Origin: Vulcanimicrobiota bacterium
GTDB taxonomy: Bacteria > Vulcanimicrobiota > Vulcanimicrobiia > Vulcanimicrobiales > Vulcanimicrobiaceae
Direction: 5' to 3'
NCBI GenBank assembly: GCA_003156715.1
Contig: PMHO01000038.1
Location: 21,891-61,717 of the forward strand
Length of the DNA: 39,827 nt
How positions within the stretch are numbered: position 1 is the first letter of the stretch; each line of letters starts with the position of its first letter. The notes under the pieces were generated by a model, which was given only the letters and a program-made list of their open reading frames with translations, was not told the origin of the DNA and did not search any database. Positions 476 through 31,453 of the stretch are shown one piece after another. The translations under genes and the position numbers were made by a program.

Positions 476-628
476 CGCCGTATCCCCATAAGCTGCACCA
501 CGTCGACTTTCCGAGCATTTCCGGCAGCGTGCGAGCGACACCTTGACATCGGAATGGTCGTAAAGTACTTTGGTCTGACCAACACGCCGGCCGCGTCTGC
601 GCGCGCGGCCGTTGAGAGAGGCTGTGCA

Positions 629-2712: not shown

Positions 2713-3331
2713 CGTAAGCGACGAGAAGACCTACGCGGTTCTCACCGCCATCTTGCTCAAGAAAGTGAGCGACGCGAGCGCGCTGTCGGAGGCGACGGGA
2801 CTGCCACTCGACGATACCGGGCGCATCCTGGGCGAGCTCGAGAAGAGGCAAGCCGTTTTCTCCATGAACTCGAGCGTCATGGCGACCGAAAGCGGGACGG
2901 CGCTCGTCAAGGAGATTGCGGCACGCAACTACGGCGAACTGCGAGGCGACCCCGAACTCGAGCGCTGGCACGCGCGCTTCGAGCCGCTCAACCGGCAGTT
3001 CCTGAGCGCCGTCACCGCGTGGCAGACCGTCGATGTCGGTGGTACGAAACTGAGCAACGATCACAGCGACAGCGAATACGACGACAAGGTACGCTCGCGC
3101 CTCGATGGCCTCGTCAATAAGATGAGCCACCTGCTCGAGGAGATCGGCGCCAAGGTCCCACGCTTGCTGCGCTATCGCGACCGGCTAAACGGTGCGCTCG
3201 ACAAGAGCTATGCGGGCGACTCGCGATTCATCTCCGACGTGCGCGTCGATTCCTTGCACACCGTCTGGTTCGAGATGCACGAAGACGTTCTGCTGGTGCT
3301 GGGTAAGGAACGGACCGATGCCGGCGGCTGA
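2687..3331 (+). CDS. Hypothetical protein, about 210 aa; the start may instead be ATG 2702
   Basis: It overlaps the end of the phosphatase gene by 11-26 nt and the start of the PPDK-like gene by 14 nt, which suggests translational coupling. The N-terminus (TYAVLTAILLKKVSDASALSEATGLPLDDTGRILGELEKRQ) looks winged-helix-like, and I recognise no catalytic motif. Confidence 0.5.
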   Translation: MGDLPMSADVSDEKTYAVLTAILLKKVSDASALSEATGLPLDDTGRILGELEKRQAVFSMNSSVMATESGTALVKEIAARNYGELRGDPELERWHARFEPLNRQFLSAVTAWQTVDVGGTKLSNDHSDSEYDDKVRSRLDGLVNKMSHLLEEIGAKVPRLLRYRDRLNGALDKSYAGDSRFISDVRVDSLHTVWFEMHEDVLLVLGKERTDAGG

Positions 3332-5894: not shown

Positions 5895-8177
5895 GTGCTC
5901 GTGCCGCAAGCGCTTCGTGCGCGTCCCAAACCCTCCCAGCCGGCCCGCATGTCGGCCGCCTCGATCGAACGCGCCTTGCGCAGGTTGGCGGTTGCGGCAG
6001 AGCGGGGCTACCATGTGTTGCTTAGCGAGGCGGAAGAAATATTTGCTGGACTGACCGGCTCGAAGCGCGCGCGCGTTTTTCTCTACGCCGGCGGCTGTTG
6101 GCGCGCGTGGGATTCGATTGAAAATGCGGCAGCAGACAACGCCGCGACGTGGCCGCAGTCCGAGCCGTCGACCTGGAACCGAATCGCCGAACTCAACGGC
6201 GACCAGTTCGTCCCGGTGCGCGCCGGGAGCCTTGCCGTGTTGCTCGAGGGGCCGCGCGGCGGTAAGGAGGGCGAGCACGTCGCGGGCATTGCCGCGGCTG
6301 CCTTCGACCTAGCGCTGACCGCTTGCCAGCGCCGTTCGCTCTCGAGCGACGAGAGCGACGAGATCGGCGTCATGCAGCGCCTGGCGATGCGCATTCTCAA
6401 GAGCCGCAACCTGCAAGAGATCCTGCTCCTGATCACGCACGAAACCAAGCAGCTGCTGGGGGCCGACATCTGCGGCATCATGCTGCGCGAAGGCGATGCG
6501 GTCGTGATGCAGCGCTGCGTCGGAAACTTTTCGGCCGATACGGCATCGCTGCGCATGCAGGCGGGTCAAGGCCTTGCCGGGCGCGTGTTCGAGACGAAGA
6601 AACCTTGTCACGTCGAGCACTACCTCGAGAGCAACCTGATCAGCAAAGACTTCATGCACCTGGCGCGCATCGAGATGGTGCGCTCGGCGCTCGGCGCACC
6701 GCTGCTCTCGCAGGACGACGCAATCGGCGTACTCGAGGTCTGGCGCCGCCAAATCTCGAAGTTCGACGAGCGCGACACGCGGCGGCTCGTCATGCTCGCG
6801 AACTTGACCTCGGTCGCGATCGAGAATGCCCGCCTCTCGCAAAGCCTCGAAAGCAACATGCTCGAGCTAGCCGCAGCCAACGCAGCGTTGATGGCGCGCT
6901 ACGAAGTGGTCCGCGCTTCGGCGGGCTTTCAACACGAACTGATCCGCTTGCTGCTCGAAGGCAAGAGCCTCGGCACCATCGCCGCCAAAGCGGCAGAGCA
7001 CGTCGATGCCGAGGTGCTGATCCTCGACGCGAACTTCGAGATCGAGGGTGCCTCGCCGGCGTGCGAGCGACTTTCCGACCGGCTGCGCGAACAGATCAAA
7101 GCGGCGCTGCGCAAGGCGCCTTCGAACGGTCCCGAGACGACCGCCGCAATGCTGGAAGGAAAGCCGGCGCTGCTCCAACCGGTCGTCGCCGCAACCGAGC
7201 GGCTCGGTGTGGTCGTCCTTCGACGGCAAACGCCGCTCGATCAAAACGCGCAGCTTGCGCTCAGCCAAATCTGCATCGTGACATCGCTGCACCTGATCGA
7301 GCGCCGCGCCGCCGCGCGCGCCCGGGCGGAGACGCTCGGTGCCGTCTTGTGGGACCTCTTGGAAGGGACCGATGACGTCCGGCGCTCGGCTGCGGCCCGC
7401 GCCCGCGACCTGCGCGTCGACCTCGAGGGAGGCCACCGCGTGTTCCTGTGCGCCCTCGACGGCATCGAACAGCAGGCCAATAGCGAGGGCTGGAGCCCGG
7501 GCGAAATCAGCGTACGGCGCAGACGCATCGCACAGACCTACCGCACGGTCGAAGACCTGGAAAAATCGGTGAAGCTCTCGGGCGCGCGCGCCAACTTCGT
7601 GGCGCTGGTTTGCGGGGGCGAGGCGGTTCGCGATGCGGAGCGTTTGGGAGCCAAGCTTGCGGCTGCCATCGCCGCGAACGTCACGGGACTCTCGGTCCAG
7701 GTCGGCATCAGCACGCCGTGTATCGGCCCGGCCTCTTTGAGCGCGGCGTATCGTGAAGCCAAAATATCGCTCGAGGTGGCCCGCCAGCGCGGCCGCGTCG
7801 CGGCGGCCTGTTACGAGGATGCAGGGATCGTCGGCATGCTGCTGAGCTTGCGCGCGGAGGCTGACGTCAAGAAAGTCGTGCACACGATCTTCGGGCCGCT
7901 GCTCGAGGAGAAAGCGCAGACCCGCGACCTGCTGTTCGGAACGCTCAAAGCCTTTTTCGAGCTAAACTGCTCGCGCCGAGCCGCCGCGAAAAAGCTTCGC
8001 GTCCACGAAAAGACGATCGTTTACCGGCTGGCGAAGATCGAATCGCTCACGGGTCTCGACTTCAGCAAGCACGAGAAGCGTCTCTTGGCGGACATCGCCT
8101 TGCAGATGTACGGCATGTCGGCGGAACGCGTCGCTTCAGGGCTTCCTTGGATCGATAACGACCTTCATCGCCCGTAA
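5895..8177 (+). CDS. Transcriptional regulator with a central GAF domain and a C-terminal PucR/CdaR-type HTH
   Basis: The C-terminus FGTLKAFFELNCSRRAAAKKLRVHEKTIVYRLAKIESLTG is a PucR-type HTH. The central region (MQRLAMRILKSRNLQEILLLITHETKQLLGADICGIMLREGDAVVM...) is GAF-like. Its 3' end overlaps the convergent ADH gene by 42 bp. Confidence 0.8.
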   Translation: MLVPQALRARPKPSQPARMSAASIERALRRLAVAAERGYHVLLSEAEEIFAGLTGSKRARVFLYAGGCWRAWDSIENAAADNAATWPQSEPSTWNRIAELNGDQFVPVRAGSLAVLLEGPRGGKEGEHVAGIAAAAFDLALTACQRRSLSSDESDEIGVMQRLAMRILKSRNLQEILLLITHETKQLLGADICGIMLREGDAVVMQRCVGNFSADTASLRMQAGQGLAGRVFETKKPCHVEHYLESNLISKDFMHLARIEMVRSALGAPLLSQDDAIGVLEVWRRQISKFDERDTRRLVMLANLTSVAIENARLSQSLESNMLELAAANAALMARYEVVRASAGFQHELIRLLLEGKSLGTIAAKAAEHVDAEVLILDANFEIEGASPACERLSDRLREQIKAALRKAPSNGPETTAAMLEGKPALLQPVVAATERLGVVVLRRQTPLDQNAQLALSQICIVTSLHLIERRAAARARAETLGAVLWDLLEGTDDVRRSAAARARDLRVDLEGGHRVFLCALDGIEQQANSEGWSPGEISVRRRRIAQTYRTVEDLEKSVKLSGARANFVALVCGGEAVRDAERLGAKLAAAIAANVTGLSVQVGISTPCIGPASLSAAYREAKISLEVARQRGRVAAACYEDAGIVGMLLSLRAEADVKKVVHTIFGPLLEEKAQTRDLLFGTLKAFFELNCSRRAAAKKLRVHEKTIVYRLAKIESLTGLDFSKHEKRLLADIALQMYGMSAERVASGLPWIDNDLHRP

Positions 8178-9182
8178 CGCCGCAAGCTCGGCGTATGCGC
8201 CCGGTGCTCCCTCAAACGACACCCGCGCGCCGACCACATCGCTCGGATCGAGCGCGCGGGTCCCCAAGAGCGCGAGCAAGGTGCGGCGCACGCGGATCGC
8301 GTCGCCGATTGCAAACGAGAACGAGATCTCGTCCGCGAAGCATTTCGCGAGCGGCAGCTCCCAGCGCTCGGCTGCGTGTGCGCCGACTGAAACGATCCGG
8401 CCGCGACGCCGGACGAGCTGCAACGCGCTCGTAAGCGCCGCATCGCGTCCGACCGCTTCGACGACCACGTCGGCACCGTCGCCGTCGGTCAGCTCTCGAA
8501 TTAGGCGCTCGGCATCCTCCGGCGCCGCGGCAAGCGCACCGTGCGCTTCTGCGAAGCGGCGCCGCTCTGCGCTCGGTTCGACCACGACGACAATGCCGGC
8601 GCCGGCCGCCTGGGCGCACATGCTGGCGAGCTGACCGACCGCGCCGCCGCCGATGACGGCCAACACTTCGCCCGGCGCAAGCCCGCTGCGCTCGATCGCA
8701 ACCCAGCCGGTCGGCAAATTATCGGCCAGCAGAATGGCGCTTTCATCCGAGCAGGCCGCGGGAACGCGCATGAGCGCGACGTCCGCAAACGGCACGCGGA
8801 CGAGCTCCGCTTGAGCGCCTGACAGCGGCGGACCGAAGGCTGCGCCCGTACCAAAAAAAGCGCGTTGCGCGCACTCCCAATGATCGCCGCGGTCGCACCA
8901 ACGGCATGCTCCGCAGGCGACGAAATCCGAGGCGAAGACGCGCTCGCCCGGCCTCACGTGCTGCACCGCCGAGCCGACTTCGACGACGCTGCCGACGAAT
9001 TCGTGTCCCAGCACGAGGCCCGGCTCGACACCGGGAAAGTCGCCGCCGATCAGATGCAGGTCCGTTCCGCAAATACCGCACAGGCTCGGGCGCACGAGCG
9101 CGTCGGTTGGGTCGACCAACGCCGGCTCGCGCACATCGTCGAGCCGAACCGAGCGCGAACCAGCGAAGACCACCGCGCGCAT
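8136..9182 (-). CDS. Zn-dependent alcohol dehydrogenase (MDR superfamily)
   Basis: It has the catalytic-Zn motif SLCGICGTDLHLIGGDF...GHEFVGSVVEVG, the structural-Zn Cys cluster CGACRWCDRGDHWEC, and the GxGxxG motif VIGGGAVGQL. It is the last gene of the - strand BMC operon, starting 2 nt after the MDH stop. Confidence 0.85.
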   Translation of the reverse strand: MRAVVFAGSRSVRLDDVREPALVDPTDALVRPSLCGICGTDLHLIGGDFPGVEPGLVLGHEFVGSVVEVGSAVQHVRPGERVFASDFVACGACRWCDRGDHWECAQRAFFGTGAAFGPPLSGAQAELVRVPFADVALMRVPAACSDESAILLADNLPTGWVAIERSGLAPGEVLAVIGGGAVGQLASMCAQAAGAGIVVVVEPSAERRRFAEAHGALAAAPEDAERLIRELTDGDGADVVVEAVGRDAALTSALQLVRRRGRIVSVGAHAAERWELPLAKCFADEISFSFAIGDAIRVRRTLLALLGTRALDPSDVVGARVSFEGAPGAYAELAALRAMKVVIDPRKP

Positions 9183-9184
9183 GC

Positions 9185-10576
9185 TTAGCGCGGCATGGCC
9201 TTGATGCGCTCGTCGATCGCCTTGGCGGACGCTGCCAGCTCCGCACGCTCGGCGGGGCGCAGGGCGAGGTCGACGATCCGGCGGACGCCCGTACGGCCGA
9301 GCAGCACCGGAAGACCAACGCGCGTGTCGATTAACCCATAGGCGCCGCGCGAGCGAACGCAGGCTGGGATCACTTCGTCGGAGTCGTCGACGATCGCCTG
9401 TACTTGTTTGGAAATCGCCGAGCCCGGCGAGAAAAACGCGCTGCCGCTTTGCAGCAGTTTCGTAACCTCGGCACCGGACTCGCGCGTGCGACGGACGATG
9501 CCGTCGAGCGTCGCGCTATCGAGCAGTTGCTCGAGCGGAACGTTGTTCGCCGTCGCTTGACTCAGTGGAATCACCATTTCCGCGCCGTGGCTTCCCAGGA
9601 CGAGCGCGCGAACGTCCTGAGCGCGAACGGCACCGGTAAGTCCGACCAGGGCGCGGAAGCGCGCGGTGTCGAGCACGCCGCCCATCCCGACGACGCGCTC
9701 GGGCGGAAAAGCCGTCAGCTCGCAAACGAGCTGCGTCATCTCTTCGAGGGGATTCGTGACGACAACGACGACCGCGTTCGGAGCAAGCTCTTTGATCGAG
9801 GGCGCAATCGAGCGTACGATCTCGGAGTTGGCCGCCGTCAAGTCGGTGCGCGACATGCCGGGCTTGCGCGGCCGCCCCGCCGTTATCACGATCACATCCG
9901 AACCCGCCACGTCGGCCATGCGGTGACTGCCTTCAACGCGCGTATCGAAGCCGCGCAGCCCGGCGCTGTGCCACATGTCGAGCGCGAGACCTTCGGCCAG
10001 CCCCTCGACGACGTCGATCAGCCGCACGCGCGCGAACCGGTCCGCTAAGGCGAGCGCGAAACCGGCACTCGCGCCAACGTGACCGGCACCGACGACCGTC
10101 ACCTGCGGGCGCGCAAGCGCCGCATCCGTCTGCCCGGCGCGCACGTTGCGCTCGCCCGCAGAGCCATATGCGCTGCGACGGTAGAGGGCACCCGAGCGCG
10201 GCAAGGCCGCGCTGCCGCTCGGGGCGGCGGCCTGCGCGACGCGTGGAAGTCCCGGGCCGACGCGCGCCGGGCCTGCCGGAGTCGTGCGCGCAGGTTGTTG
10301 CAGCACGCCGCGCTGCGCAGGCTGCGAAACGGGTCGCTGTACGAGCGCCGGGCTGACGTACGACGTCATGGTGCGTTGCGGCGGACCGCTCGCGCCGTCG
10401 CGTTCGATCGTGATGCCGAGCTCTTTCGCGCGGTCGAGCGCGAGCGGCGTCACCACGTCGAGCGGGCCGATGCGCAAGCTCCCCGAGGCCTGCTCCACGT
10501 CGCGAAGCGTGAAGACGCTTCTCGGCGTTTCCTCCTTTGACGACGCGCGACCGTTCGGAACGCCGGCCCCCTTCAC
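9185..10576 (-). CDS. mdh: LDH-like malate dehydrogenase carrying a ~150-aa N-terminal extension (a small folded motif followed by a Pro/Ala/Gln-rich linker)
   Basis: The C-terminal ~310 aa match LDH/MDH: VTVVGAGHVGASAGFALAL, DVIVITAGRPRKPGMSRTDL and VLGSHGAEMVIP. The Arg in the GRPRKPG specificity position points to malate rather than lactate. The N-terminus (MKGAGVPNGRASSKEETPRSVFTLRDVEQASGSLRIGPLDVVTPLALDRAKELGITIERDG, then a low-complexity PAQ-rich stretch) is absent from ordinary MDHs. The start overlaps the BMC-T stop by 4 nt. Confidence 0.85.
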   Translation of the reverse strand: MKGAGVPNGRASSKEETPRSVFTLRDVEQASGSLRIGPLDVVTPLALDRAKELGITIERDGASGPPQRTMTSYVSPALVQRPVSQPAQRGVLQQPARTTPAGPARVGPGLPRVAQAAAPSGSAALPRSGALYRRSAYGSAGERNVRAGQTDAALARPQVTVVGAGHVGASAGFALALADRFARVRLIDVVEGLAEGLALDMWHSAGLRGFDTRVEGSHRMADVAGSDVIVITAGRPRKPGMSRTDLTAANSEIVRSIAPSIKELAPNAVVVVVTNPLEEMTQLVCELTAFPPERVVGMGGVLDTARFRALVGLTGAVRAQDVRALVLGSHGAEMVIPLSQATANNVPLEQLLDSATLDGIVRRTRESGAEVTKLLQSGSAFFSPGSAISKQVQAIVDDSDEVIPACVRSRGAYGLIDTRVGLPVLLGRTGVRRIVDLALRPAERAELAASAKAIDERIKAMPR

Positions 10577-11193
10577 TCGCGTCCCTCGAGAGCGGCCAGG
10601 GCGGCGACGGCGGCGTCGCGCGCGGTCCGCACGTCGCTCTCGCTTCCGGAAACGAACAGCCGGCCGAAGCGGCCGACGGCGCGCACCTCGATCAGGCTGA
10701 TCTCGGCCGTTTTCTCCGCCTCGTTGGCTGCCAGCGTGACGTAGGCCGCGGGCGAAACCTCGAGAACGAACAAGCTGCTGCGCGGCAAGAGCAGATTTCC
10801 CTTGCGCCAGCGATTGATCAGCTGCGCTTGATACGGGTTCACGTTGGTCACGAATTGCGAGGACGCCACTTTCGGCTTGAGGCGATCGGCTTCGCCGATC
10901 CCGAGGTACTCGAGCACCGCTTGCCCGGCGGCGATGACTTCGGCTTGCGTTCGCGAGTGCACCTCGAGCAACCCGAATTCGCGCTCGACGATCTGAAGGG
11001 CGGGGCGAACGTCGGCCGCTTTGAGGGCCACGTCCGCGCAGCGGAAGATTTCGTTACCCGGGGCAACCTCGATGAACAACTCCGACATTCCGGCCACCGG
11101 GACGTCGCCTTGGCAAGTGGCCGCAACGTGTGCCGCCGCTTGCGGCTGCATGCGATCGATGAACGCGTACGTGCGCAACTCGACGCCGGCCAT
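10573..11193 (-). CDS. BMC-T shell protein (tandem, permuted BMC domains; EutL/PduB-like)
   Basis: From the internal ATG 11193 there are two BMC-like repeats: ...MSELFIEVAPGNEIFRCADVALKAADVRPALQIVEREFGLLEVHS and ...SLFVLEVSPAAYVTLAANEAEKTAEISLIEVRAVGRFGRLFVSG. There is a GAGGGG RBS about 11 nt upstream. The track ORF 10573..11454 over-extends by 87 codons. Confidence 0.72.
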   Translation of the reverse strand: MAGVELRTYAFIDRMQPQAAAHVAATCQGDVPVAGMSELFIEVAPGNEIFRCADVALKAADVRPALQIVEREFGLLEVHSRTQAEVIAAGQAVLEYLGIGEADRLKPKVASSQFVTNVNPYQAQLINRWRKGNLLLPRSSLFVLEVSPAAYVTLAANEAEKTAEISLIEVRAVGRFGRLFVSGSESDVRTARDAAVAALAALEGRE

Positions 11194-11230
11194 CAGTTCG
11201 CCGCCCCTCGGCACGCTTCGTCGCCGCGTT

Positions 11231-12631
11231 TCACTTGAGATCGTACAGCGAGCGCCACGGCCGGATCTCGTGTGCGATGCGCTTGATGTTGATGAGATGC
11301 AGCGGCGTAACGTTGTCGGAGACGATCGATCCGCTCCAGGTTCCGGTGCCCAGCATGAACGACGGATCCGTGGCAGCGCTGAAGCCCATTCCGCCGAACA
11401 AGCTCGGCGTATTGCAAAGAATGCGTGCGGCCGGGAGGGACGCGAACTTGGCAATCACCGCGTCGTCGCCCGCGTGGAGGCCGAGCGTGTGGCCGGCGCC
11501 GCCGAAATCGAGAACCTGCCGGCAGCGTTCGTAAGCGGCGTCCGCGTTCTTGGCGCGATAGAACGACAGAACCGGGCCGAGAATCTCACGCGACAACGGG
11601 GTTTGCGGCCCGACGTCGTGCAGCTCGGCGGCGAGCACGCGGCAATTCGCTTCGACGCGCGCCCCGATCCGGTCCGCCAGAACGCGCGCCGATTGTCCGA
11701 CCGACTGCGGCCGCAGATCGCCGCCCTCGGTAAAGAGAAGCGACGCCAAGCGCTGCGCCTCCTCCGCACCAAGAAAGACGGTGCCCTGCGCTTCGAAAGC
11801 CGTAAAGGCGGCGTCGGCGATAGGCTCGTCGAGGACGACCGATTGTTCGGCGACGCAGGCCGTTCCGTTGTCGAAGGCTTTCGAAGTGACGATCATCGTC
11901 GCCGCTTCGAGCAGGTCCGGGACGGAGCGATCGATGTATGCCGGCACGTTGCCGGGCCCGACTGCCAGCGTCGGTTTACCAGAAGAATAGGCAGCGCGCA
12001 CCATGCCGGCGCCGCCGGTTGCCAGGACCATCGAGACGGCCGGATGGCGCATCAACTCCTGCGTCGACTCGAGCGTAACGCTCTCCAGACACGAGATCAG
12101 GCCGCGCGGCGCCCCAGCCCGCTCGGCCGCGCGGGCCATGATCTCGGCCGTGCGCGCGCAACAGCGCACCGCGCGCGGATGCGGCGCGCAAACGATGGCA
12201 TTCCCCGACTTGACCGCCGCCAGGCATTTGAACAGGACGGTCGAGGTTGGATTGGTGACGGGGATGATGGCGGCCAAAACGCCCATCGGTGAGCCGACGG
12301 CCGCCATCCGGTTCGGCTCGTCGACCCACAGAACACCGAGCGTGCGCATCTCCAGCATCGCTTGGGCCACGAAGCGCGCGTTGTAAAGATTCTTGTAGAC
12401 CTTGTCGGCGACGACGCCGTAGCCGGTCTCCTCGACGGTGAGCCGGGCGAGTTCTTCGGCCGCGGCCGCCCCGGCGTTTGCCATTGCGCTCACGATGCGG
12501 TCGACCACCGCTTGCGTGGCGCCGTCGAACGACTCGAAGGCGGCCCGTGCGTCGCGCGCTTTCGCGCGCGCTTCAGCGAGCGCGATCAGGTCGGAATCGG
12601 CTTCGAGCGCAGCCATCGCGCCCCCAGGCAC
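11231..12631 (-). CDS. CoA-acylating aldehyde dehydrogenase (PduP/EutE family)
   Basis: The ALDH fold is clear. VGPGNVPAYIDRS and TSKAFDNGTACVAEQSVV match the PduP/EutE catalytic-Cys motif, and the C-terminus (...VTPLHLINIKRIAH) is EutE-like. A GTG start at 12631 sits 9 nt downstream of a GGAGGA RBS. No long N- or C-terminal extension is evident. Confidence 0.9.
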   Translation of the reverse strand: MPGGAMAALEADSDLIALAEARAKARDARAAFESFDGATQAVVDRIVSAMANAGAAAAEELARLTVEETGYGVVADKVYKNLYNARFVAQAMLEMRTLGVLWVDEPNRMAAVGSPMGVLAAIIPVTNPTSTVLFKCLAAVKSGNAIVCAPHPRAVRCCARTAEIMARAAERAGAPRGLISCLESVTLESTQELMRHPAVSMVLATGGAGMVRAAYSSGKPTLAVGPGNVPAYIDRSVPDLLEAATMIVTSKAFDNGTACVAEQSVVLDEPIADAAFTAFEAQGTVFLGAEEAQRLASLLFTEGGDLRPQSVGQSARVLADRIGARVEANCRVLAAELHDVGPQTPLSREILGPVLSFYRAKNADAAYERCRQVLDFGGAGHTLGLHAGDDAVIAKFASLPAARILCNTPSLFGGMGFSAATDPSFMLGTGTWSGSIVSDNVTPLHLINIKRIAHEIRPWRSLYDLK

Positions 12632-12661
12632 GATCGATTATCCTCCGGGATCCCGCGGTCG

Positions 12662-12964
12662 CTACTTGAGCTTGCCGAGAATCAGGTCCACGTCTTCGTG
12701 GGGCCGTGGGATCACATGCACCGAGATCACCTCGCCGACCTTGCCGGCCGCAGCCGCGCCGGCATCGGTCGCGGCCTTGACCGCCCCGACGTCGCCGCGG
12801 ACCATGACGGTGACGAGGCCACCCCCGATTTGCTCTCGGCCCATCAGCCGGACGTTGGCTGCTTTGACCATCGAATCGGCCGCCTCGATCGCTGCGACGA
12901 GGCCCTTTGTTTCGATGAGACCGAGCGCGCCGCCCGGGGACTCCGAGCTACCTGGTGCTGCCAT
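12662..12964 (-). CDS. BMC-H shell protein (single BMC domain; PduA/EutM/CcmK-like)
   Basis: [77 protein letters not shown] is a canonical BMC domain. An AAAGGGGGG RBS lies upstream. Confidence 0.9.
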
Positions 12965-12988
12965 GACACTGACCCCCCTTTTGCTTTA

Positions 12989-13294
12989 CTACTTGACGAA
13001 CGTGGTGCGCGAATCGAGCCGGGCACTGTCGACGATGGCGACGATGGCGGCATCGGTCGGAACGCGCGCCGTGCCCTCGTCGACGCGCGCGGCGCCGCCG
13101 TGCGCGACCAAAACGATCTCGCCCTCGCCGACGCCGACCAGGTCGATGGCGGCATACACCGCGGCGCTTGCATCGCCGTCGCCGCCAAGCGGATCGCGCG
13201 GATCGACCTCTCGAACCAACAAAAGTTTGTAGCTCGACAGACCGTCGGCTTTGACCGTGGCGACGACGTTTCCGCACACCCGCCCTAGGCGCAT
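12989..13294 (-). CDS. BMC-P vertex protein (EutN/CcmL/PduN family)
   Basis: From the internal ATG 13294 the sequence runs MRLGRVCGNVVATVKADGLSSYKLLLVREVDP...AAIDLVGVGEGEIVLVAHGGAAR...AAIVAIVDS. An AAAGGG RBS lies upstream, and it is the first gene of the - strand operon. The track ORF 12989..13429 over-extends by 45 codons. Confidence 0.85.
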   Translation of the reverse strand: MRLGRVCGNVVATVKADGLSSYKLLLVREVDPRDPLGGDGDASAAVYAAIDLVGVGEGEIVLVAHGGAARVDEGTARVPTDAAIVAIVDSARLDSRTTFVK

Positions 13295-13470
13295 CGTTTG
13301 GAACCCTTTCGTAGCTTGGCCCCCACTATAGGTTCGGGACCGCCACGCCGTCATGCTCGCGACCGGATAAAAAGCTCCGCCAACTTCTATCCGCACCGCC
13401 CGTAGCGCCTCGAGCCTCATCGTGGACAATTGAGAGCACGGGCGGCGCGGCCGTCCGAGGAGGATTCGTT

Positions 13471-14493
13471 TTGATCCAAGATGCGGATGCGGACTTTCAC
13501 GGGCGCGATTCGAGCGACCCCACCTGGTCCGAAACGAACTACTTCGCCTTCTACGAGCCGCAGTCGCGTTTAAACGTCGGTCTGTACGCGCTTTTCCGGA
13601 CGACCCTGGGAACGGTCGGCTCGACGATCTGCATCAATTCCGGCCGGTCTTTGACGCCGTGGGAAGCCGATTTCTGCGACATGCGCTCCTCGCTGCCGAT
13701 TCCGAAGCCCTACGACCTGCGCGCTTACAAGCTCGCCAACTCGCTCGCGGTCCGTACGATCGAGCCCAACCGCGTCTGGGATCTGCGCTACGATGACGGC
13801 GAAGGTACGCGGGTCGACGTGCGCTGGGAGGCGCTGATGCCGGGCTTCGACATCCACGATCCGGCCGAAGATCCGATGGCGGCGGCGGCGAGTCACGCGC
13901 AGGCCGAGGGCAAGTTCGCCTGGGGAACCGCCTACAACGGCCATTTCGATCAAACGGGGCGCGCCCACGGTACGGTCGCCGTTCGCGGCAAGGCGTATGA
14001 AATCGACTGCGTTTCCACCATGGACCACAGTTGGGGTCCGCGCCCCGAGCGCGGCGCCCCGCCGATGTGTTGGCTCGGCGCCCATTTTTCAAAAGATTTC
14101 GCGATGCATGCCATCTTCAGCTTCGATCCGGCCCAGAACCCGACGGGGCTACGCTTGACGCACGGTTACGTCCTCGAGCGGGGGAAGGTTTTCGGTCTTA
14201 AAGCGGGGAGTGGCCGCACGGTGCGCGGGAGCGACCGTTACGCCGAGACCATCGAGCTCACCGTAACCGACCGGGCCGAACGCACGTGGAACTTCTCCGG
14301 CGCCGGCTTGACGACGTTTCCCTGGCTATGCTGGCCGAATATGGTCGGCTTCAACGTCCTGACGCGTTGGGAGTGCAACGGCTTGACGGGCTACGGCGAG
14401 ATCTACGACTTCTACGAGCTGCCGCTGCTCGCGTCGCTCAACGGCTCGCCCGCGACCCGCATCGCATCGAGGCCGGCCTCCGTGAACGCCTGA
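13471..14493 (+). CDS. Hypothetical protein (340 aa), Trp-rich and probably a beta-rich fold; function unknown
   Basis: A TTG start is preceded by a strong GAGGAGG RBS 6 nt upstream. It is transcribed divergently from the BMC shell operon across a 176-bp intergenic region. I recognise no family motif with confidence; any resemblance to AttH/CrtC-type lipocalin hydratases is vague. Confidence 0.55.
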   Translation: MIQDADADFHGRDSSDPTWSETNYFAFYEPQSRLNVGLYALFRTTLGTVGSTICINSGRSLTPWEADFCDMRSSLPIPKPYDLRAYKLANSLAVRTIEPNRVWDLRYDDGEGTRVDVRWEALMPGFDIHDPAEDPMAAAASHAQAEGKFAWGTAYNGHFDQTGRAHGTVAVRGKAYEIDCVSTMDHSWGPRPERGAPPMCWLGAHFSKDFAMHAIFSFDPAQNPTGLRLTHGYVLERGKVFGLKAGSGRTVRGSDRYAETIELTVTDRAERTWNFSGAGLTTFPWLCWPNMVGFNVLTRWECNGLTGYGEIYDFYELPLLASLNGSPATRIASRPASVNA

Positions 14494-14497
14494 GCCG

Positions 14498-15487
14498 ATG
14501 CCGCCGCGCGCGATCCTCTTCGACTTCGACGGCACCCTCGTTCAAACGCGCGAGGCTTCCTGGGAGCTGTTCGCTCAAACCAATCGCGAGTTTGGCCTGG
14601 GCATCGAGGATCGCGACGCTTTTTTCGATCTCTTTAACGACAACTTTTTCCGGGCTCTCGCCGCCCGTTGCCCCGACAAGACGAAGCTCGATGCGGCCAA
14701 GCACCACTTTCTCGAGCTCCTTCGCACGCAGTACACGCCGCCGCTGGTACCGGGCCTGGCCGACGTGGTGCGAACCCTGGCGAGCCGCTGCACGCTCGTC
14801 GTCCTCTCCACCAACACGATCGCAACGATTCGACGCGTGCTGAGCGAAGCCGGCGTGGCGACGTGTTTCGCGCACGTCTTCTCGGGCGACGTGGAACCCG
14901 ACAAGAGCGTCAGCATGCGGCGCTTCCTCGCCGACGCAGGTTACGGCGTCGGACGGCGCTGCTCGCCTGCGTACGACGAGCTCAACGGCGCGCGCGACGA
15001 AGGCGGCGTAGCACTGATTACCGACACGGCAGGCGACGTGAAGGAGGCGTTGGCTTGCGGCGTTCGCGCCATCGGCGTCGCGTGGGGCATGCACGGCGAA
15101 TCCGAGCTGCTTGCAGCCGGCGCCGAAACGGTGGCGGTTTGGCCGCAAGAGCTCATCGCTTGGCTTGCGTCGGGCGAGCCCGCGCCTGGTGCGACGGCCT
15201 GTTTGCTTCCTCCCAAGGGCGCCTGCGCATGCGAGGGCGCTACCTCGACACCGTGCGCTTGTCCGCACGAACCGGCCGCTACGGCAGCCGAGCGCGTTGC
15301 CGCCGCCGCGCGCGTGCGCCGCGCGCGCAACTCCGAGCGCTTGGAGGAGGCTCGCCGCACCCGGTTTTGGGATCGCAGCGAATCCGTGCTTCGCTCGGAG
15401 CCGCCGCCGGCCGTGCCGCGCGCGCCACCGCCGTCAGAACCCGAACTGCTGGCGACGCTGCGGCGTCTGCGTCACATCCAGGTTTGA
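14498..15487 (+). CDS. HAD-superfamily phosphatase (phosphoglycolate-phosphatase-like) with a ~100-aa C-terminal tail
   Basis: The N-terminus ILFDFDGTLV is HAD motif I, and later motifs are VVLSTN and GDV...D. The tail has a Cys cluster (CLLPPKGACACEGATSTPCACPHEP), an Ala/Arg-rich segment, a Pro-rich segment (EPPPAVPRAPPPSEPE) and ends LLATLRRLRHIQV. It starts 4 nt after the upstream stop. Confidence 0.8.
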   Translation: MPPRAILFDFDGTLVQTREASWELFAQTNREFGLGIEDRDAFFDLFNDNFFRALAARCPDKTKLDAAKHHFLELLRTQYTPPLVPGLADVVRTLASRCTLVVLSTNTIATIRRVLSEAGVATCFAHVFSGDVEPDKSVSMRRFLADAGYGVGRRCSPAYDELNGARDEGGVALITDTAGDVKEALACGVRAIGVAWGMHGESELLAAGAETVAVWPQELIAWLASGEPAPGATACLLPPKGACACEGATSTPCACPHEPAATAAERVAAAARVRRARNSERLEEARRTRFWDRSESVLRSEPPPAVPRAPPPSEPELLATLRRLRHIQV

Positions 15488-15518
15488 ACGTGCATCTTCG
15501 CTGAGGAGGACAGAAGCA

Positions 15519-15935
15519 ATGACAGTTTTAGCCGAAGGTTACAACGCCTTCGAAACACCCAAATCGCCGACCGGCGTCGTCAAGTACCTCGGTGACCCGA
15601 CTGCGGTTATCGCGCTGATCTCGAGCGGCAAACTGCAAGACCACATCATCCTGGCGCAGGGCGGAACGACGACCTTCCTGTCCCCGGCGCTCACCATGGG
15701 ATGCCTCGGCGTCATCACGCTCTCGGGTGCGCCCGAGTCCCATCTCGGCATCCTGTCGCGCGAGTTTCAAATCCCGTGCATCATGACCGCCTATCAGCCG
15801 AACACCGAAACCCGCTACGTCACGGGCGGCAACAACGACGAGCACTTCAAGCAAATGATTGCAGCTCTCGACGGGAAGAAAGTCCGTCTCAAGTGCGACC
15901 ATCACGACGTCGCGCAGGTACTCCTCGAAGACTGA
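15519..15935 (+). CDS. Stand-alone PEP-utilising-enzyme mobile (phospho-histidine swivel) domain protein, 138 aa
   Basis: ATG 15519 follows a GAGGAGGA RBS. The sequence LQDHIILAQGGTTTFLSPALTMGCLGVITLSGAPESHLGILSREFQIPCIM resembles the GG.TSHAAI.ARE.GIP swivel motif, with a candidate catalytic His in ESHLG. Confidence 0.7.
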   Translation: MTVLAEGYNAFETPKSPTGVVKYLGDPTAVIALISSGKLQDHIILAQGGTTTFLSPALTMGCLGVITLSGAPESHLGILSREFQIPCIMTAYQPNTETRYVTGGNNDEHFKQMIAALDGKKVRLKCDHHDVAQVLLED

Positions 15936-15986
15936 CCCTCGTAACTTCACGTCTTACGCAGCGCTCAAGACAAGAGAGGAAACGCG

Positions 15987-17408
15987 ATGATAGATCATAT
16001 GGCCGGTTATTTGAAGCGGTACGAACCCGACGACAACGGGCTGCGCTTCCAGGACCTGGTCTACCAAGGCAACTTCAAGGGGATGGAGCCCGTTCCCGAC
16101 GGGATTCTCGGCGACAAGATCATGCGCCAGCGCGCAAAGAGCAAGGTCCTCGAGAAAGTCAGCCACCAGGACGTGCTCAGAGACAACTTCACGATCGACG
16201 AGCTCAACGATCTCAACAACTACCTGGCCTGGAACATTTGGGACGTGCTCGTCATGCGCGCGACCGAGGGCGTGTCGGGCATGATCCCGCGCCAGGAATA
16301 CGAGATCTTGGCGTTTATGCACGAGTTCTACCGCTGGCCGGAGATCCTGCGCATGACCAACGATGAGGTTGGAGCACAAGCGATCATCGACATCGGCAAG
16401 AGCGCCCGGCGCGAGATCGGAACGAAGGTGAACTGCGTTCACGACTGGTGCATCGGCGCGGTCGGATTCGGCATGGGCCGCTGCGGACTGCTCGCCCTCG
16501 AAGTCATCAAACCGCAAGATTTCGTCGAGGAAAGCAACATCATCCTCAAGTTCATGCAGCGCGTTCTGTGGGGCAAGCGCCAAGACGGCTACATCCTCAA
16601 CTCGCAAGATCGCTACCGCTGCTTGATCCACGACCAAGATTTCCTGGACACGCTGACGCCGCAGCTCGAGGAGATCGAGGCAGGCAGTGAAAAGCACGAC
16701 GCTTTCGTCCGCTTCAACGCGACCGCCGAGCTGCTCGCCTTCCTCGACCACTACGACTGCCGCCTCGGTCTAGGGGACACCGGGCCCTATCCACTTCCGG
16801 ACGGAAAGGTCTTGATCGTTCGCGACCTTTTCTGCAACGAAGAAGTCTACCACTGGAGCGACGTGTGCGATCACGAGAAGGTCCCGCACGCGTACACGAT
16901 GCTGGTCGTCCTGGATGCGGCCAAGATGGGGCTCGAGGAAATTCGGGTCAACGACATCTCGACGACCTTCACCCGGCCCAAGAACTACATCCCGTATATC
17001 ACCGCAGGCGCGGTGTTCGTGCGCGAGAAGTGGAACACGCCCATGTCCGAGGTGTACTCCGTTCCCATCAAGGATCTCGCACCGCGGCTGCATGGCGTGC
17101 AGCAAGCCACGCTCAAGCTCTACACCAAGACCTCGCGCATGTCGCGCCGCCAGTTGATCACCAACGGAATGTACGATTACTACATCGAGATGATCTTACC
17201 CCACTTGCGACTGGCCGGAACGTACGAGAAGGCGTGCAAGGAGTACGACTTCTGGGAGATCGACCATCGCATCTCGGATTACTACTACGACATCACCAAG
17301 CGCGGCTTCGCACAGGCAACCGTGCCGCAGAAGATCTTCTCGGGCGAAGGCTACCTGCCGTTCCCGGACAACGTCGATCCGCGGCGTTCGAAGTACTTCT
17401 GGGATTAA
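15987..17408 (+). CDS. Hypothetical protein (473 aa), Cys/His-containing, with Asp/Glu/Lys/Tyr-rich composition; function unknown
   Basis: It has an AGAGAGG RBS. This is a long clean ORF whose amino-acid composition and apparently lower GC differ from its Ala/Arg-rich neighbours. It lies between the swivel-domain gene and the second BMC-H. I recognise no family motif. Confidence 0.6.
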   Translation: MIDHMAGYLKRYEPDDNGLRFQDLVYQGNFKGMEPVPDGILGDKIMRQRAKSKVLEKVSHQDVLRDNFTIDELNDLNNYLAWNIWDVLVMRATEGVSGMIPRQEYEILAFMHEFYRWPEILRMTNDEVGAQAIIDIGKSARREIGTKVNCVHDWCIGAVGFGMGRCGLLALEVIKPQDFVEESNIILKFMQRVLWGKRQDGYILNSQDRYRCLIHDQDFLDTLTPQLEEIEAGSEKHDAFVRFNATAELLAFLDHYDCRLGLGDTGPYPLPDGKVLIVRDLFCNEEVYHWSDVCDHEKVPHAYTMLVVLDAAKMGLEEIRVNDISTTFTRPKNYIPYITAGAVFVREKWNTPMSEVYSVPIKDLAPRLHGVQQATLKLYTKTSRMSRRQLITNGMYDYYIEMILPHLRLAGTYEKACKEYDFWEIDHRISDYYYDITKRGFAQATVPQKIFSGEGYLPFPDNVDPRRSKYFWD

Positions 17409-17477
17409 CGCCGTTTGGCCGGCATCGGGGTTACGTACGGTAGCGTGCGTAGCCCCAATGCGGCCGGCGAGAGCGCG

Positions 17478-17774
17478 ATGATTGAGACGTTTGGGGTTGA
17501 GGCTCTGGGGCTGGTCGAGACCTTCGGCCTGGCAGCGGCCGTGGAGGCGGCCGATGCGATGGTGAAGACCGCGAGCGTCCGCGTCATTACCAAGCAGCAG
17601 CCAGGCGGCGGGCTCATCGCCATCATGGTGACCGGGGAAACGAGCGCCGTGCAGTCCGCGGTCGATGCCGGCGTCGCAGCGGCCGAGCGCGTCGGCCGCG
17701 TCGTCAGCCGGCGCGTCATCGCCAGACCTGACGCAGACATTCTCGACCTGCTCGAGCGGCCGCCGGTGCGTTGA
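17478..17774 (+). CDS. BMC-H shell protein, second copy (satellite)
   Basis: From the internal ATG 17478 the sequence runs MIETFGVEALGLVETFGLAAAVEAADAMVKTASVRVITKQQPGGGLIAIMVTGETSAVQSAVDAGVAAAERVGRVVSRRVIARP, a canonical BMC domain. Confidence 0.85.
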   Translation: MIETFGVEALGLVETFGLAAAVEAADAMVKTASVRVITKQQPGGGLIAIMVTGETSAVQSAVDAGVAAAERVGRVVSRRVIARPDADILDLLERPPVR

Positions 17775-17830: not shown

Positions 17831-18730
17831 ATGAAGCGGCCTACCTCCTTGCGCGCGGCTCGGAAGCCGCCGCTCTCGAAAAAGGCCGCCTCGCATCGTC
17901 TCACGGGCTCGACGGCGGCGGCTTCCAAACCGGCGTTCAAGCCCGTTCTCCACCGCCGGGCTTTTGAAGACGTCATCTTCCAGATCGAGGAAGCGATCTT
18001 GGACGGGCGGCTCGCCGTCGGCGACCGGCTGCCTCCGGAGCGCGAGCTGGCCGAAGCATTTCAGGTAAGCCGCCCATCCGTGCGCGAAGCCTTGCGCGTG
18101 TTGGAGGCGTTTGGAATCTTGAGCGCGCGGCGCGGCGCGGGTTCCGAATCCGGTTCGGTCGTGCGCGGCGAAAACAACCAGGGCCTGGCCAACACCCTGC
18201 GGCTGTACGTCTCGCTGCTGCGCATACCGCTGCTCGATTTGCTTGAGATTCGAGAAGCGCTTGAGACCTGGTCTTTTCGCGGCGCGGCGGCCCGGGCGAC
18301 GCCCGACGCACTCACGCGCCTCGGACGGCTAGTCGACCAGATGGACGCCGCGCTCGATCCCGAGGTTTTCTTGGAACGCGATACCGAATTCCACGTAGCG
18401 ATCGCGAAGATGTCGGGTAACGCGGTGGCGCCGCTGTTCACCGAGGCCTTGCGCGAAGCGATCGCGCGCCAAATTCTCGACGCGTTCCGAAAACTCGACG
18501 ACTGGCCTGCCGAGCACGCGTGGCTCGTCGCCGAGCACCGCGGTTTGGTGGCGGCGATTCGATCCGGCGTGGCGGAAAAAGCGGCCGGTGCCGCAAGCGA
18601 TCACATCCGCGACTTCTACCGGCGGATGTTCGGTCCGCAGCCGAGCGTGGCCGCGCCGGCGCGCCCCGCACGGGCATCCCTTGGACGGCGCAAACGCAAG
18701 GCCGGCGGCGGGAATTCGCGTTTGGCCTGA
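17831..18730 (+). CDS. GntR-family transcriptional regulator, FadR/FCD subfamily
   Basis: The HTH is LPPERELAEAFQVSRPSVREALRVLEAFGIL, followed by a helical FCD-like C-terminal domain. The start is ATG 17831; the longer TTG 17771 start would overlap the BMC-H stop. Confidence 0.8.
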   Translation: MKRPTSLRAARKPPLSKKAASHRLTGSTAAASKPAFKPVLHRRAFEDVIFQIEEAILDGRLAVGDRLPPERELAEAFQVSRPSVREALRVLEAFGILSARRGAGSESGSVVRGENNQGLANTLRLYVSLLRIPLLDLLEIREALETWSFRGAAARATPDALTRLGRLVDQMDAALDPEVFLERDTEFHVAIAKMSGNAVAPLFTEALREAIARQILDAFRKLDDWPAEHAWLVAEHRGLVAAIRSGVAEKAAGAASDHIRDFYRRMFGPQPSVAAPARPARASLGRRKRKAGGGNSRLA

Positions 18731-18787
18731 CCAATCTTACGGTTTACCAGAACTCGGGCGAAACGGTCTTAGAGATGGGAGCGAACG

Positions 18788-20185: not shown

Positions 20186-20371
20186 TCAGTCGAGGTCGAA
20201 GCTAAGCGCGTCGAGCGCAGCTTTCTCTTGAAGCGTCGCAGTCGAGCACGGGAAGCGCAACGCGATGTAGTCGCAAGCGCGACAGACTTCCATGCCGCGA
20301 AAATCTTCGTGCATGTCCCGGCGATGTCCGCAGCGTTCACACGGACGCGGATCGGCTTGTGCTTGCTGCAT
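20186..20371 (-). CDS. Small zinc-ribbon-like protein, about 61 aa (weak call)
   Basis: MQQAQADPRPCERCGHRRDMHEDFRGMEVCRACDYIALRF contains two CxxC pairs. It is convergent with, and abuts, the Rieske gene. It could be spurious. Confidence 0.3.
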   Translation of the reverse strand: MQQAQADPRPCERCGHRRDMHEDFRGMEVCRACDYIALRFPCSTATLQEKAALDALSFDLD

Positions 20372-27513: not shown

Positions 27514-27534
27514 CGGTGGCCTTCTTACGAGCGG

Positions 27535-31446: not shown

Positions 31447-31453
31447 GCGTCCG

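Follow-up and report, generated by a model that had tools for sequence, protein, structure and literature searches.

A probable MIC1 microcompartment locus with a candidate split dikinase beside its shell genes

Gene content of the locus

A 39,827-nucleotide stretch of contig PMHO01000038.1 from a Vulcanimicrobiota bacterium (hereafter "the window", meaning the whole stretch; positions are window coordinates) encodes the shell of a bacterial microcompartment (BMC) together with a compact set of enzymes and regulators (Table 1). Judging by gene set, shell set, orthology, and synteny, we consider it very likely that this locus is a member of MIC1, a metabolosome type with an incomplete core. Gene assignments were based on Pfam and NCBIfam matches and on public gene calls for the same sequence, and these bear out every gene named in a first-pass annotation made from the sequence alone, down to the Ldh_2 dehydrogenase at the window edge.

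The minus strand operon runs in the order BMC-P, BMC-H, CoA-acylating aldehyde dehydrogenase (AldDH), BMC-T(dp), a malate dehydrogenase (MDH)-like protein, and a zinc-dependent alcohol dehydrogenase (Zn-ADH). The divergent plus strand operon encodes the DUF7065/7064 protein, a HAD phosphatase, a stand-alone swivel protein, a 473-aa protein, and the second BMC-H. Another plus strand operon lies upstream, with overlapping junctions, and comprises a HIBADH-like dehydrogenase, a histidine phosphatase, a 209-aa protein, a protein related to pyruvate phosphate dikinase (PPDK), and a GAF-PucR regulator. Many contigs of up to 379 kb from several metagenomes encode identical proteins, for example ENA ERZ28663326 WOOD18-1 scaffold_22, JGI 3300031525, and JGI 3300037217.

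Table 1. Features of the locus and its immediate flanks, in window coordinates
Feature	Position	Strand	Evidence
BMC-P pentamer shell protein, 101 aa	12989-13294	-	PF03319 2e-22, gene call
BMC-H hexamer shell protein 1, 100 aa	12662-12964	-	PF00936 2e-29
CoA-acylating AldDH, 461-466 aa	11231-12631	-	TIGR02518 4e-149
BMC-T(dp), CcmP/CsoS1D-like tandem-domain shell protein, 206 aa	10573-11193	-	NF053796 (CcmP model) 1e-77; PF27545 and PF00936; CsoS1D_N
MDH-like protein (LDH-like malate dehydrogenase), 463 aa	9185-10576	-	NF004863 2e-98 from aa 155; Ldh_1_N from aa 158
Zn-ADH (medium-chain alcohol dehydrogenase), 348 aa	8136-9182	-	PF08240, PF00107
DUF7065 and DUF7064 protein, AttH fold, 340 aa	13471-14493	+	Pfam
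HAD-family phosphatase, 329 aa	14498-15487	+	PF13419, PF00702
Stand-alone PEP-utilizers swivel protein, 138 aa	15519-15935	+	PF00391 30.1 bits (cutoff 23.1), gene call
473-aa protein, no family match	15987-17408	+	
BMC-H hexamer shell protein 2, 98 aa	17478-17774	+	PF00936 7e-25, gene call
209-aa partner protein	2702-3331	+	tblastn, gene call
PPDK-like protein, 856 aa	3318-5888	+	PF01326, PF00391, PRK05878, start codon and ribosome-binding site, gene call
GAF-PucR transcription regulator, 742 aa	5949-8177	+	PF13556, PF13185, PF17853
HIBADH/6PGDH-like dehydrogenase	554-1528	+	Pfam, gene call
Tandem (PGAM-like) histidine phosphatase	1525-2712	+	Pfam, gene call
Ldh_2 dehydrogenase, truncated at window edge	2-475	-	
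GntR-FCD regulator	17831-18730	+	Pfam
Rieske oxygenase	18788-20185	+	Pfam

Both BMC shell folds are clustered here, with three PF00936 proteins (one of them tandem) and one PF03319 protein, and the shell is complete, as the first-pass annotation had stated: PF03319, PF00936, and the CcmP model identify one BMC-P, two BMC-H, and one BMC-T. The first BMC-H carries the canonical motifs DSMVK and IPRPH and is 75-92% identical to its counterparts in related loci; the second carries DAMVK and IARPD. BMC-P is 41-55% identical across 19 related loci, and BMC-T(dp) shows 83% identity to the BMC-T on the plasmid of Methylibium petroleiphilum PM1 and 84% to that of a catalogued Bradyrhizobium locus.

AldDH (PF00171) is the sole core, or textbook, metabolosome enzyme in the window, again in agreement with the initial call. 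Its catalytic Cys lies within FDNGTACVAEQS, it has no terminal extension, and it is 68% identical to the PM1 MIC1 AldDH printed in the supplementary alignment of Axen 2014. The AldDHs of MIC2 are described as having no encapsulation peptide (Sutter 2021, PMC8217296), with which the extension-free enzyme of the window agrees. Zn-ADH (44-64% identity in related loci) has no extension either; it belongs to a threonine/polyol-dehydrogenase-like subgroup, with IolM and Tdh as top NCBIfam matches, both under the cutoff. Among the scanned window open reading frames (ORFs) and the 8.5 kb upstream, we found no phosphotransacylase (PTAC; PF06130, PF01515), no acyl kinase, and no diol or ethanolamine lyase, glycyl-radical enzyme, aldolase, or other recognized signature enzyme. 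The enzyme set is unlike those of PDU, EUT, GRM, PVM, RMM, and SPU loci, as had been noted from the sequence.

Relationship to catalogued MIC1 loci

MIC1 was described in 2014 as a locus type with AldDH, a dehydrogenase of the lactate dehydrogenase (LDH)/MDH family, Zn-ADH, and a HAD hydrolase, without PTAC or signature enzyme (Axen 2014, PMC4207490). Table S2 of that catalogue lists Nakamurella multipartita, Pseudonocardia dioxanivorans CB1190, and M. petroleiphilum PM1 as MIC1 genomes, all three with two BMC-H, one BMC-T, and one BMC-P (PMC4207490), exactly the composition found in the window. The type was recatalogued in 2021 with 46 loci and with MIC1-specific hidden Markov models for HAD_2, Zn-ADH, Ldh_1_C, and AldDH (Supplementary Data 6; Sutter 2021, PMC8217296). 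PF00107 Zn-ADH and PF13419 HAD_2 are both present in the window, and their orthologs in Bradyrhizobium macuxiense BR 10303 (locus L019), whose BMC-P carries the label "bmcType=MIC1 (main)" in the tree file from 2021, show 61% and 52% identity, respectively.

To collect relatives, the MDH-like protein was searched against one genome per species, which yielded 21 loci, 19 of them with shell genes. Their common order is PPDK-like, ~200-aa, 473-aa, swivel, HAD, and DUF7064/65 genes on one side and BMC-P, BMC-H, AldDH, EutJ-like, BMC-T, MDH-like, Zn-ADH, and PucR genes on the other, and this synteny is kept in 16-19 of the 21 loci, spanning Proteobacteria and Actinobacteria. GAF-PucR is 30-42% identical in 17 loci and also occurs in a shell-free cluster of Methylocella. 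The BR 10303 locus is syntenic with the window, with proteins 41-91% identical, and the same gene set is found on plasmid pRB98 of Rhodococcus oxybenzonivorans S2-17 (also catalogued as MIC1) and on megaplasmid RPME01 of PM1. These three catalogued loci share with the window two BMC-H, one BMC-T(dp), and one BMC-P; an AldDH without encapsulation peptide; an extended MDH-like enzyme; Zn-ADH, HAD, DUF7064/65, swivel, 473-aa, ~200-aa partner, PPDK-like, and GAF-PucR proteins; and the same gene order within the two divergent operons.

The window differs from them in several respects. It has no EutJ/MreB-like gene between AldDH and BMC-T, where only 37 bp remain; the 209-aa and PPDK-like genes stand on the PucR side instead of after the 473-aa gene; the 473-aa gene is followed by that for the second BMC-H (which in locus L033 lies 3' of the PPDK-like gene); one operon has an additional HIBADH-like gene and histidine phosphatase gene; and the flanks encode Ldh_2, MFS transporter, GntR, Rieske, and esterase proteins. 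A tblastn search with the EutJ-like protein of BR 10303 found this gene in 18 of the 19 shell-bearing relatives, being absent from the window and from locus L014. Without the EutJ/MreB-like gene, and with its 209-aa and PPDK-like genes relocated to the opposite flank, the window very likely represents a variant of MIC1.

Loss of the EutJ-like gene, relocation of the 209-aa and PPDK-like genes, and the presence of a partly decayed copy on the PM1 plasmid would also fit a decaying or non-functional MIC1 remnant. We regard this as highly improbable: no gene is disrupted, third-position GC is high, and the junctions overlap and are coupled; identical proteins recur in several metagenomes; locus L014 also lacks the EutJ-like gene; and deletion of EutJ had no noticeable effect on assembly of the Salmonella Eut BMC (PMC12487888).

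The first-pass annotation had proposed a candidate new metabolosome type, with the MDH, PPDK-like, and phosphatase genes as its hallmark, pointing to an enzyme set distinct from the PDU, EUT, GRM, PVM, RMM, and SPU sets; the absent EutJ-like gene and the additional HIBADH, histidine phosphatase, and Ldh_2 genes could be added in its favor. That proposal does not hold up against the catalogued type, to which gene set, shell set, and synteny all correspond (Axen 2014; Sutter 2021): three catalogued MIC1 loci share synteny with the window at 41-91% identity protein by protein, the defining MIC1 Pfam domains and the shell composition all match, and the additional genes are conserved nowhere else. 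An undescribed type therefore appears very unlikely, and the window adds no new organelle type. Conservation of the neighborhood, which had been suggested as a check, divides the genes named there. The MDH-like, PPDK-like, and HAD genes stand beside shell genes in 16-19 genomes from several phyla, whereas counterparts of the HIBADH-like, PGAM-like histidine phosphatase, Ldh_2, MFS, GntR, Rieske, and esterase genes were found in none of the other loci examined. The latter are lineage-specific neighbors, and other loci carry different extra phosphatases, such as Y_phosphatase3 on a Pseudonocardia contig and SurE in Rhodococcus. The annotation had also envisaged that the shell genes might cluster with a known type whose signature enzyme lies just outside the window; the type is indeed a known one, but MIC1 itself has no known signature enzyme.

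Two other catalogued types resemble the locus in part. MIC2 shares AldDH, an LDH/MDH-family enzyme with a EutQ-like N-terminal extension, a minimal shell with BMC-T(dp), and a dehydrogenase of the 6PGDH superfamily, represented in the window by the HIBADH-like gene, for which relatives show no conservation. Membership in MIC2 is ruled out by the absence of glutamine synthetase (PF00120), for which no scanned window ORF or upstream gene call gave a match; in addition, the window has HAD, Zn-ADH, and a second BMC-H. RMM1, the aminoacetone BMC of Mycobacterium and Rhodococcus, is similar in outline, with a kinase forming a phosphate ester, a lyase releasing an aldehyde, and an acylating AldDH consuming it, as well as a BMC-T(dp) and no PTAC; its AldDH is the nearest characterized relative of the MIC1/MIC2 AldDH clade (Sutter 2021, PMC8217296). 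The enzymes there, however, are an APH-type kinase (PF01636), a phospholyase of the class-III aminotransferase type (PF00202), and a short-chain dehydrogenase/reductase, none of which was found in the scanned window ORFs; in their place are a PPDK-type split dikinase candidate, an AttH-fold protein, and HAD.

The dikinase candidate, the AttH-fold protein, and the terminal extensions

The PPDK-like protein consists of an ATP-grasp nucleotide-binding domain, a phosphohistidine swivel domain, and ~280 C-terminal residues without a family match. It scores 529 bits against PRK05878 (cutoff, 456), and its alignments with PPDK structures in the PDB stop at PPDK residue ~559. The PEP/pyruvate-binding TIM barrel (PF02896) gave no match in this protein, and the C-terminal 282 aa match no Pfam family even at E<=10. 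The free swivel protein retains the His within GAPESHLGILSRE. Outside the shell proteins, conservation in the locus is strongest for the 473-aa protein, which the first-pass annotation had not flagged (71-82% identity from Acidimicrobiia to Bradyrhizobium). It has over 700 homologs, each of them annotated as "hypothetical", and distant relatives at 25-46% identity were recovered by an exhaustive HMMER search; the protein has no match in Pfam or NCBIfam, among PDB sequences, or at the fold level. The 209-aa protein is 27-39% identical in 16 loci by tblastn; its gene lies 3' of the 473-aa gene in most loci, and in distant relatives it is fused to the C-terminus of 473-like proteins.

Several fusions join these proteins: swivel with 473-like and 209-like regions (P0162, P0170, and P0172), 473-like with 209-like (P0166, P0297, P0190, and P0215), and swivel with 473-like (P0179, P0205, and P0265). 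Because of these fusions and the synteny, the swivel, 473-aa, and 209-aa proteins may be viewed as one functional unit that receives phosphate from phosphohistidine, for which the PPDK-like protein would be the obvious ATP-using donor. Together, the four proteins look like a split dikinase with the 473-aa protein as its putative acceptor or catalytic subunit. PPDK, PEP synthase, phenylphosphate synthase, and rifampicin phosphotransferase share the ATP-grasp nucleotide domain and the phosphohistidine swivel domain, and phenylphosphate synthase also has a multi-subunit, split organization. In contrast to these enzymes, the acceptor domain is replaced here by the 473-aa and 209-aa module without a fold match, an extra free swivel is present, and the ~280-aa C-terminus has no match. 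A dikinase is not mentioned in the portions of the two MIC1 catalogues that we consulted (Axen 2014; Sutter 2021), and literature searches for dikinases in BMCs and for the Methylocella locus tags returned nothing relevant.

The N-terminus of the 209-aa protein shows weak matches to winged helix-turn-helix Pfam models (wHTH-PRTase_assc and HVO_A0261_N; TrmB in a Pseudonocardia ortholog), and its PM1 paralog (L039, 14261-14833) is annotated as a MarR-family regulator. On two metagenome contigs (L031 and L032), a distant swivel/473/209 module lies near genes for P450 and ferredoxin (with or without reductase), Aldedh, Zn-ADH, APH-type kinases, and Y_phosphatase3, and also near MaoC and an HpcH lyase or near an acyl-CoA dehydrogenase and ligase. 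The family looks like a general element of oxidative catabolic clusters in which kinases and phosphatases are encoded as well.

The DUF7065/7064 protein has an AttH/CrtC-like double beta-barrel fold, and some of its homologs are named "AttH domain-containing protein" in UniRef. Its fold matches include 2ich, an uncharacterized AttH protein (score 23.9), 9fzn, the 25-phosphosteroid lyase (also 23.9; 271 residues aligned at 18% identity, the highest among the matches), several fungal Diels-Alderases (~22), and 7a0q, a kievitone hydratase (21.3). The 25-phosphosteroid lyase has been proposed to act with an ATP-dependent kinase, the two together dehydrating a tertiary alcohol that is not directly oxidizable (PMC8449060, PMC11061730). 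This Sterolibacterium denitrificans pair resembles the locus in combining an AttH-fold protein with an ATP-dependent phosphorylating enzyme and in the logic of ATP-dependent C-O cleavage; it differs in its steroid substrate, its APH-type kinase, the lack of a BMC, and the lack of a detectable sequence-profile relationship. The AttH-fold gene accompanies the 473-aa gene even in distant shell-free clusters. We consider the encoded protein a candidate phosphate-ester lyase or isomerase. Chemistry of the kinase-plus-lyase kind is a tentative reading, to which we give somewhat less than even weight.

Two proteins of the locus carry extensions that might link them to the shell. When module proteins were compared between shell-linked and shell-free loci, HAD alone differed. 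Its C-terminal extension is present in the window and in all 19 aligned shell-linked orthologs and absent from both shell-free orthologs (Methylocella and Pseudomonas), which end before it. The extension comprises a CxC-rich segment, an RRxRR segment, a variable Pro/Ala linker, and a terminal motif, D-x-x-L-L-x-S/A-L-R-R-L/I-R, which in the window reads ELLATLRRL with Leu spacing i/i+1/i+4/i+7. Encapsulation peptides are generally terminal, follow a linker, and show hydrophobic spacing, a description that the HAD tail fits. From this distribution and pattern, the C-terminal helix of HAD is a candidate encapsulation peptide; a hydrophobic-moment scan did not single out the motif. Within the extension (window 15150-15487), the linker before the putative encapsulation helix holds a conserved Cys-rich stretch, ACACEGATSTPCACP, with CGC, CxC, or CxxC in most shell-linked orthologs; both this stretch and the RRxRR segment are absent in shell-free orthologs. 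These segments could bind a metal, serve in redox chemistry, or provide a second contact with the shell.

The MDH-like enzyme, a member of the LDH/MDH family (PF00056/PF02866), has an N-terminal extension of ~157 aa composed of a conserved ~45-aa element, a long variable Pro/Ala-rich linker, and the motif SGALYRRGAPVP. In the alignment, the extension is kept in 17 shell-linked orthologs and absent from a non-BMC Rhodococcus homolog (L020). Searched alone, it has no Pfam match. A profile of the extension aligned its first ~45 aa with residues 4-50 of Escherichia coli EutQ, N-terminus to N-terminus, at 13 bits. Salmonella EutQ uses helices H1/H2 (residues 9-41) for binding to the shell (PMC12487888), at the EutM/EutL interface, and a flexible linker follows the corresponding region in both proteins. 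Apart from the weakness of the similarity, the MDH-like protein differs from EutQ in lacking a cupin domain and a counterpart of the cargo-binding helices H3/H4, the element being joined to the MDH catalytic domain instead. An N-terminal extension on LDH/MDH was previously reported for MIC2, only in BMC contexts, with a similar domain in MIC1 and detectable homology to the EutQ/cupin-like superfamily (Sutter 2021, PMC8217296). The mode of association is likely shell binding rather than that of a classical encapsulation peptide. The first-pass wording of a "targeting-like" extension was reasonable because the extension aligns weakly with the shell-binding region of EutQ and is absent from a non-BMC homolog.

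The MDH-like enzyme retains Arg102 (GRPRKPGMSRTDL, compared with GLPRKPGMTREDL in Chlorobium MDH, in an alignment to 1guz). This dicarboxylate-binding residue would also suit a scheme in which the PPDK-like system acts on the enolate of a 2-oxo acid or ketone to give an enol phosphate, the MDH-like enzyme serves as a pathway enzyme converting a 2-hydroxy acid to the 2-oxo acid, and HAD hydrolyzes the enol phosphate or a derived ester. The nearest characterized homologs, PPDK and PEP synthase, do phosphorylate the pyruvate enolate, and a MimR_N-type regulator, of a type linked to ketone sensing, controls the Pseudomonas cluster described below. Yet the pyruvate/PEP-binding TIM barrel is missing and replaced by an unrelated module of novel fold, and the AttH-fold partner has no role in such a scheme. 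The MDH-like gene and the window-type Zn-ADH, moreover, occur only with shells; because its gene is absent from the shell-free clusters, the MDH-like enzyme is not part of the core pathway. We consider the enol phosphate scheme rather unlikely and prefer, on sequence grounds, a luminal NAD+ recycler using oxaloacetate as the predicted role of this enzyme.

Proposed pathway, substrate clues, and neighboring genes

Combining synteny, fusions, fold similarity, and the distribution of the extensions, we propose the following mechanism. A split PPDK-type dikinase (the PPDK-like ATP-grasp/His protein, the free swivel carrier, and the 473-aa and 209-aa acceptor module) would phosphorylate a substrate hydroxyl with ATP. 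The HAD phosphatase, targeted into the shell by its C-terminal helix, would release the free alcohol or carbonyl compound inside, where Zn-ADH and the acylating AldDH would oxidize it via a reactive aldehyde to acyl-CoA. If both luminal steps produce NADH, NAD+ would have to be recycled in the lumen; the MDH-like enzyme, tethered by its EutQ H1/H2-like N-terminal element, would re-oxidize NADH with oxaloacetate, replacing the usual alcohol dehydrogenase. As no PTAC is present, the acyl-CoA would leave the shell, perhaps through the CcmP-like BMC-T(dp). Taken as a whole, MIC1 identity together with this mechanism is the explanation that we favor and regard as likely.

The module also occurs without a shell, in longer catabolic clusters of two genomes. 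In Pseudomonas sp. NFACC02, the cluster encodes a MimR_N-type sigma-54 regulator, Aldedh, Zn-ADH, an AMP-ligase, the module, an outer-membrane channel, an MCC-like carboxyltransferase, an enoyl-CoA hydratase, a biotin carboxylase with BT_MCC_alpha, and an HMG-CoA-lyase-like protein. The Methylocella silvestris BL2 cluster encodes an AMP-ligase, Aldedh, a carboxyltransferase, a biotin carboxylase, a MaoC hydratase, an HpcH/CitE lyase, the module, and PucR. Orthologs shared by the two clusters are Aldedh, the ligase, and the carboxylase subunits (46-65% identity); their hydratases and lyases belong to distinct families. This composition supports a conserved route from aldehyde to acid, acyl-CoA, carboxylation, hydration, and cleavage, which resembles the leucine and acyclic-terpene pathways for 3-methyl-branched enoyl-CoAs. 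R. oxybenzonivorans carries the Aldedh/ADH/ligase trio in addition to the shell set.

These clusters bear on an alternative in which the shell houses no more than a generic core for aldehyde oxidation (AldDH, Zn-ADH, and the MDH-like enzyme), with the dikinase, AttH-fold, and HAD proteins forming an independent cytosolic pathway and the aldehyde source encoded elsewhere. Besides the occurrence of the module without shell genes, HAD aside, its proteins do not differ in size between shell-linked and shell-free loci; the PM1 locus lacks the 473-aa and swivel genes in place; and the signature enzyme was itself proposed to lie possibly elsewhere (Axen 2014, PMC4207490). Against this, the genes tightly adjoin the shell operon, mostly divergently, in 16-19 loci from different phyla, the HAD tail is found only in shell-linked orthologs, and no alternative aldehyde-generating enzyme is conserved in the flanks examined. 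Such separation is in our view unlikely, and the dikinase/AttH/HAD module rather probably feeds the shell.

Several observations weigh against the favored explanation or parts of it. The EutJ/MreB-like gene, a usual MIC1 feature (Axen 2014), is missing, and a literature search found no publication on experimental work on any MIC1 locus. The AttH-fold protein is linked to the 25-phosphosteroid lyase at the fold level; a profile of 24 AttH-like family members recovered no PDB sequence, including 9fzn, and the same fold occurs in hydratases and Diels-Alderases. The 25-hydroxysteroid kinase, considered as a dikinase counterpart, was rejected as an APH-type kinase. It is not obvious why a phosphatase should be encapsulated if the phosphate is taken off by a lyase. 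The Zn-ADH subgroup usually acts on secondary alcohols. The encapsulation-peptide call for HAD draws on presence/absence and pattern, with just two shell-free orthologs for comparison, and the EutQ similarity of the MDH extension is weak. Finally, Liu-type carboxylase genes were not found within 10 kb of the shell-bearing loci in the fetched flanks, where this search returned only HMGL-like genes, in two loci (L011 and L019).

A weak, circumstantial substrate lead comes from PM1. Its MIC1 locus lies on megaplasmid RPME01, which carries the genes for degradation of methyl tert-butyl ether and tert-butanol; two regions of this plasmid were compared (L040, NC_008826.1 443-458 kb, and L039, 480-493 kb). 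The 473-aa and swivel genes appear to be missing at the usual place, although the PLSDB annotation is incomplete and pseudogenes are possible. A diverged second copy of the module, flanked by insertion sequences, is found ~25 kb away and includes DUF7064 (63% identity), a HAD fragment, 473-like (30%), swivel, and 209-like genes and PucR; it stands directly upstream of the hcm 2-hydroxyisobutyryl-CoA mutase cluster. The enzymes converting methylbutenol to prenol were still uncharacterized in 2016 (PMC4791888). A dikinase, an AttH-fold lyase or isomerase, and a phosphatase could carry out this conversion, and the product prenal could be the reactive enal leading to 3-methylcrotonyl-CoA. A tertiary or allylic hemiterpene-type alcohol as the substrate is a speculative suggestion with a low probability. 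The same low standing applies to the full version of the scheme, in which the conserved non-shell genes would be the missing signature system of MIC1: a dikinase acting on a non-oxidizable alcohol (possibly 2-methyl-3-buten-2-ol), an AttH-fold phospho-lyase or isomerase, an encapsulated HAD, oxidation of the enal to a 3-methyl-branched acyl-CoA, and a shell-tethered MDH.

Among the neighbors of the locus, HIBADH-like and histidine phosphatase genes head the operon with the 209-aa and PPDK-like genes, each overlapping the next. Ldh_2 and an MFS sugar-type transporter gene are divergent from them (window 2-2712 and the 8.5 kb upstream, L037), and the other MIC1 loci examined have no counterpart of these four genes. 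These genes may adapt the pathway of this lineage to a different entry substrate. On the other side, GntR-FCD, a Rieske/LigXa_C-type oxygenase, and a carboxylesterase (17831-22298) lie 3' of the second BMC-H on the same strand, while the R. oxybenzonivorans locus has an FAD oxidoreductase and an alpha/beta hydrolase nearby instead; differing oxygenase/esterase pairs beside MIC1 loci might generate the entry alcohol. Farther downstream are an epimerase gene and, at 24139-34839, two ABC transporter sets of the Liv type (branched-chain amino acid-like), each with a periplasmic binding protein, one of which has a TAT signal; the sets flank a GH130-family gene. Plus strand ORFs at 35693-37270 (525 aa) and 37650-38633 (327 aa) are candidate genes with no Pfam match, located beside a LolA-like ORF (34848-35726, minus strand) and an NHL/SGL-repeat protein (38713-39753).

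With a GC content of 62-68%, the window has many long spurious ORFs, and third-position GC by itself is ambiguous for gene calling in such DNA. Apparent N-terminal extensions of the HIBADH-like ORF (~200 aa) and the PPDK-like ORF (~45 aa) were rejected as artefacts of the longest-ORF choice, based on gene calls and, for the latter, also the start codon. A minus strand ORF at 15528-15950 (140 aa) was likewise rejected as a gene, given the public gene calls and Pfam match of the swivel gene to which it is antisense. That it stays open in relatives (35-49% identity by tblastn) comes solely from shadowing a conserved gene at high GC content, a warning that antisense ORFs of the window can give an impression of conservation.

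MIC1 has been listed since 2014 without a signature enzyme or known substrate. It is found in soil Proteobacteria and Actinobacteria, and its hosts include the pollutant degraders M. petroleiphilum PM1 and P. dioxanivorans CB1190. The locus offers four testable handles on MIC1 function: the four-part dikinase candidate, its AttH-fold partner, the HAD protein with a shell-linked tail, and the MDH-like enzyme with a EutQ-like N-terminus. If these leads prove true, they would define the cargo of MIC1, add a new family of ATP-dependent alcohol-activating enzymes, and supply new targeting tags for engineered compartments. Should the conserved non-shell genes indeed be the signature system, this would mean a new enzyme family, loading of a BMC with a phosphate-tagged substrate, and an acceptor fold unseen in solved structures, and possibly the methylbutenol-to-prenol isomerase activity of Methylibium, Aquincola, and Pseudomonas.

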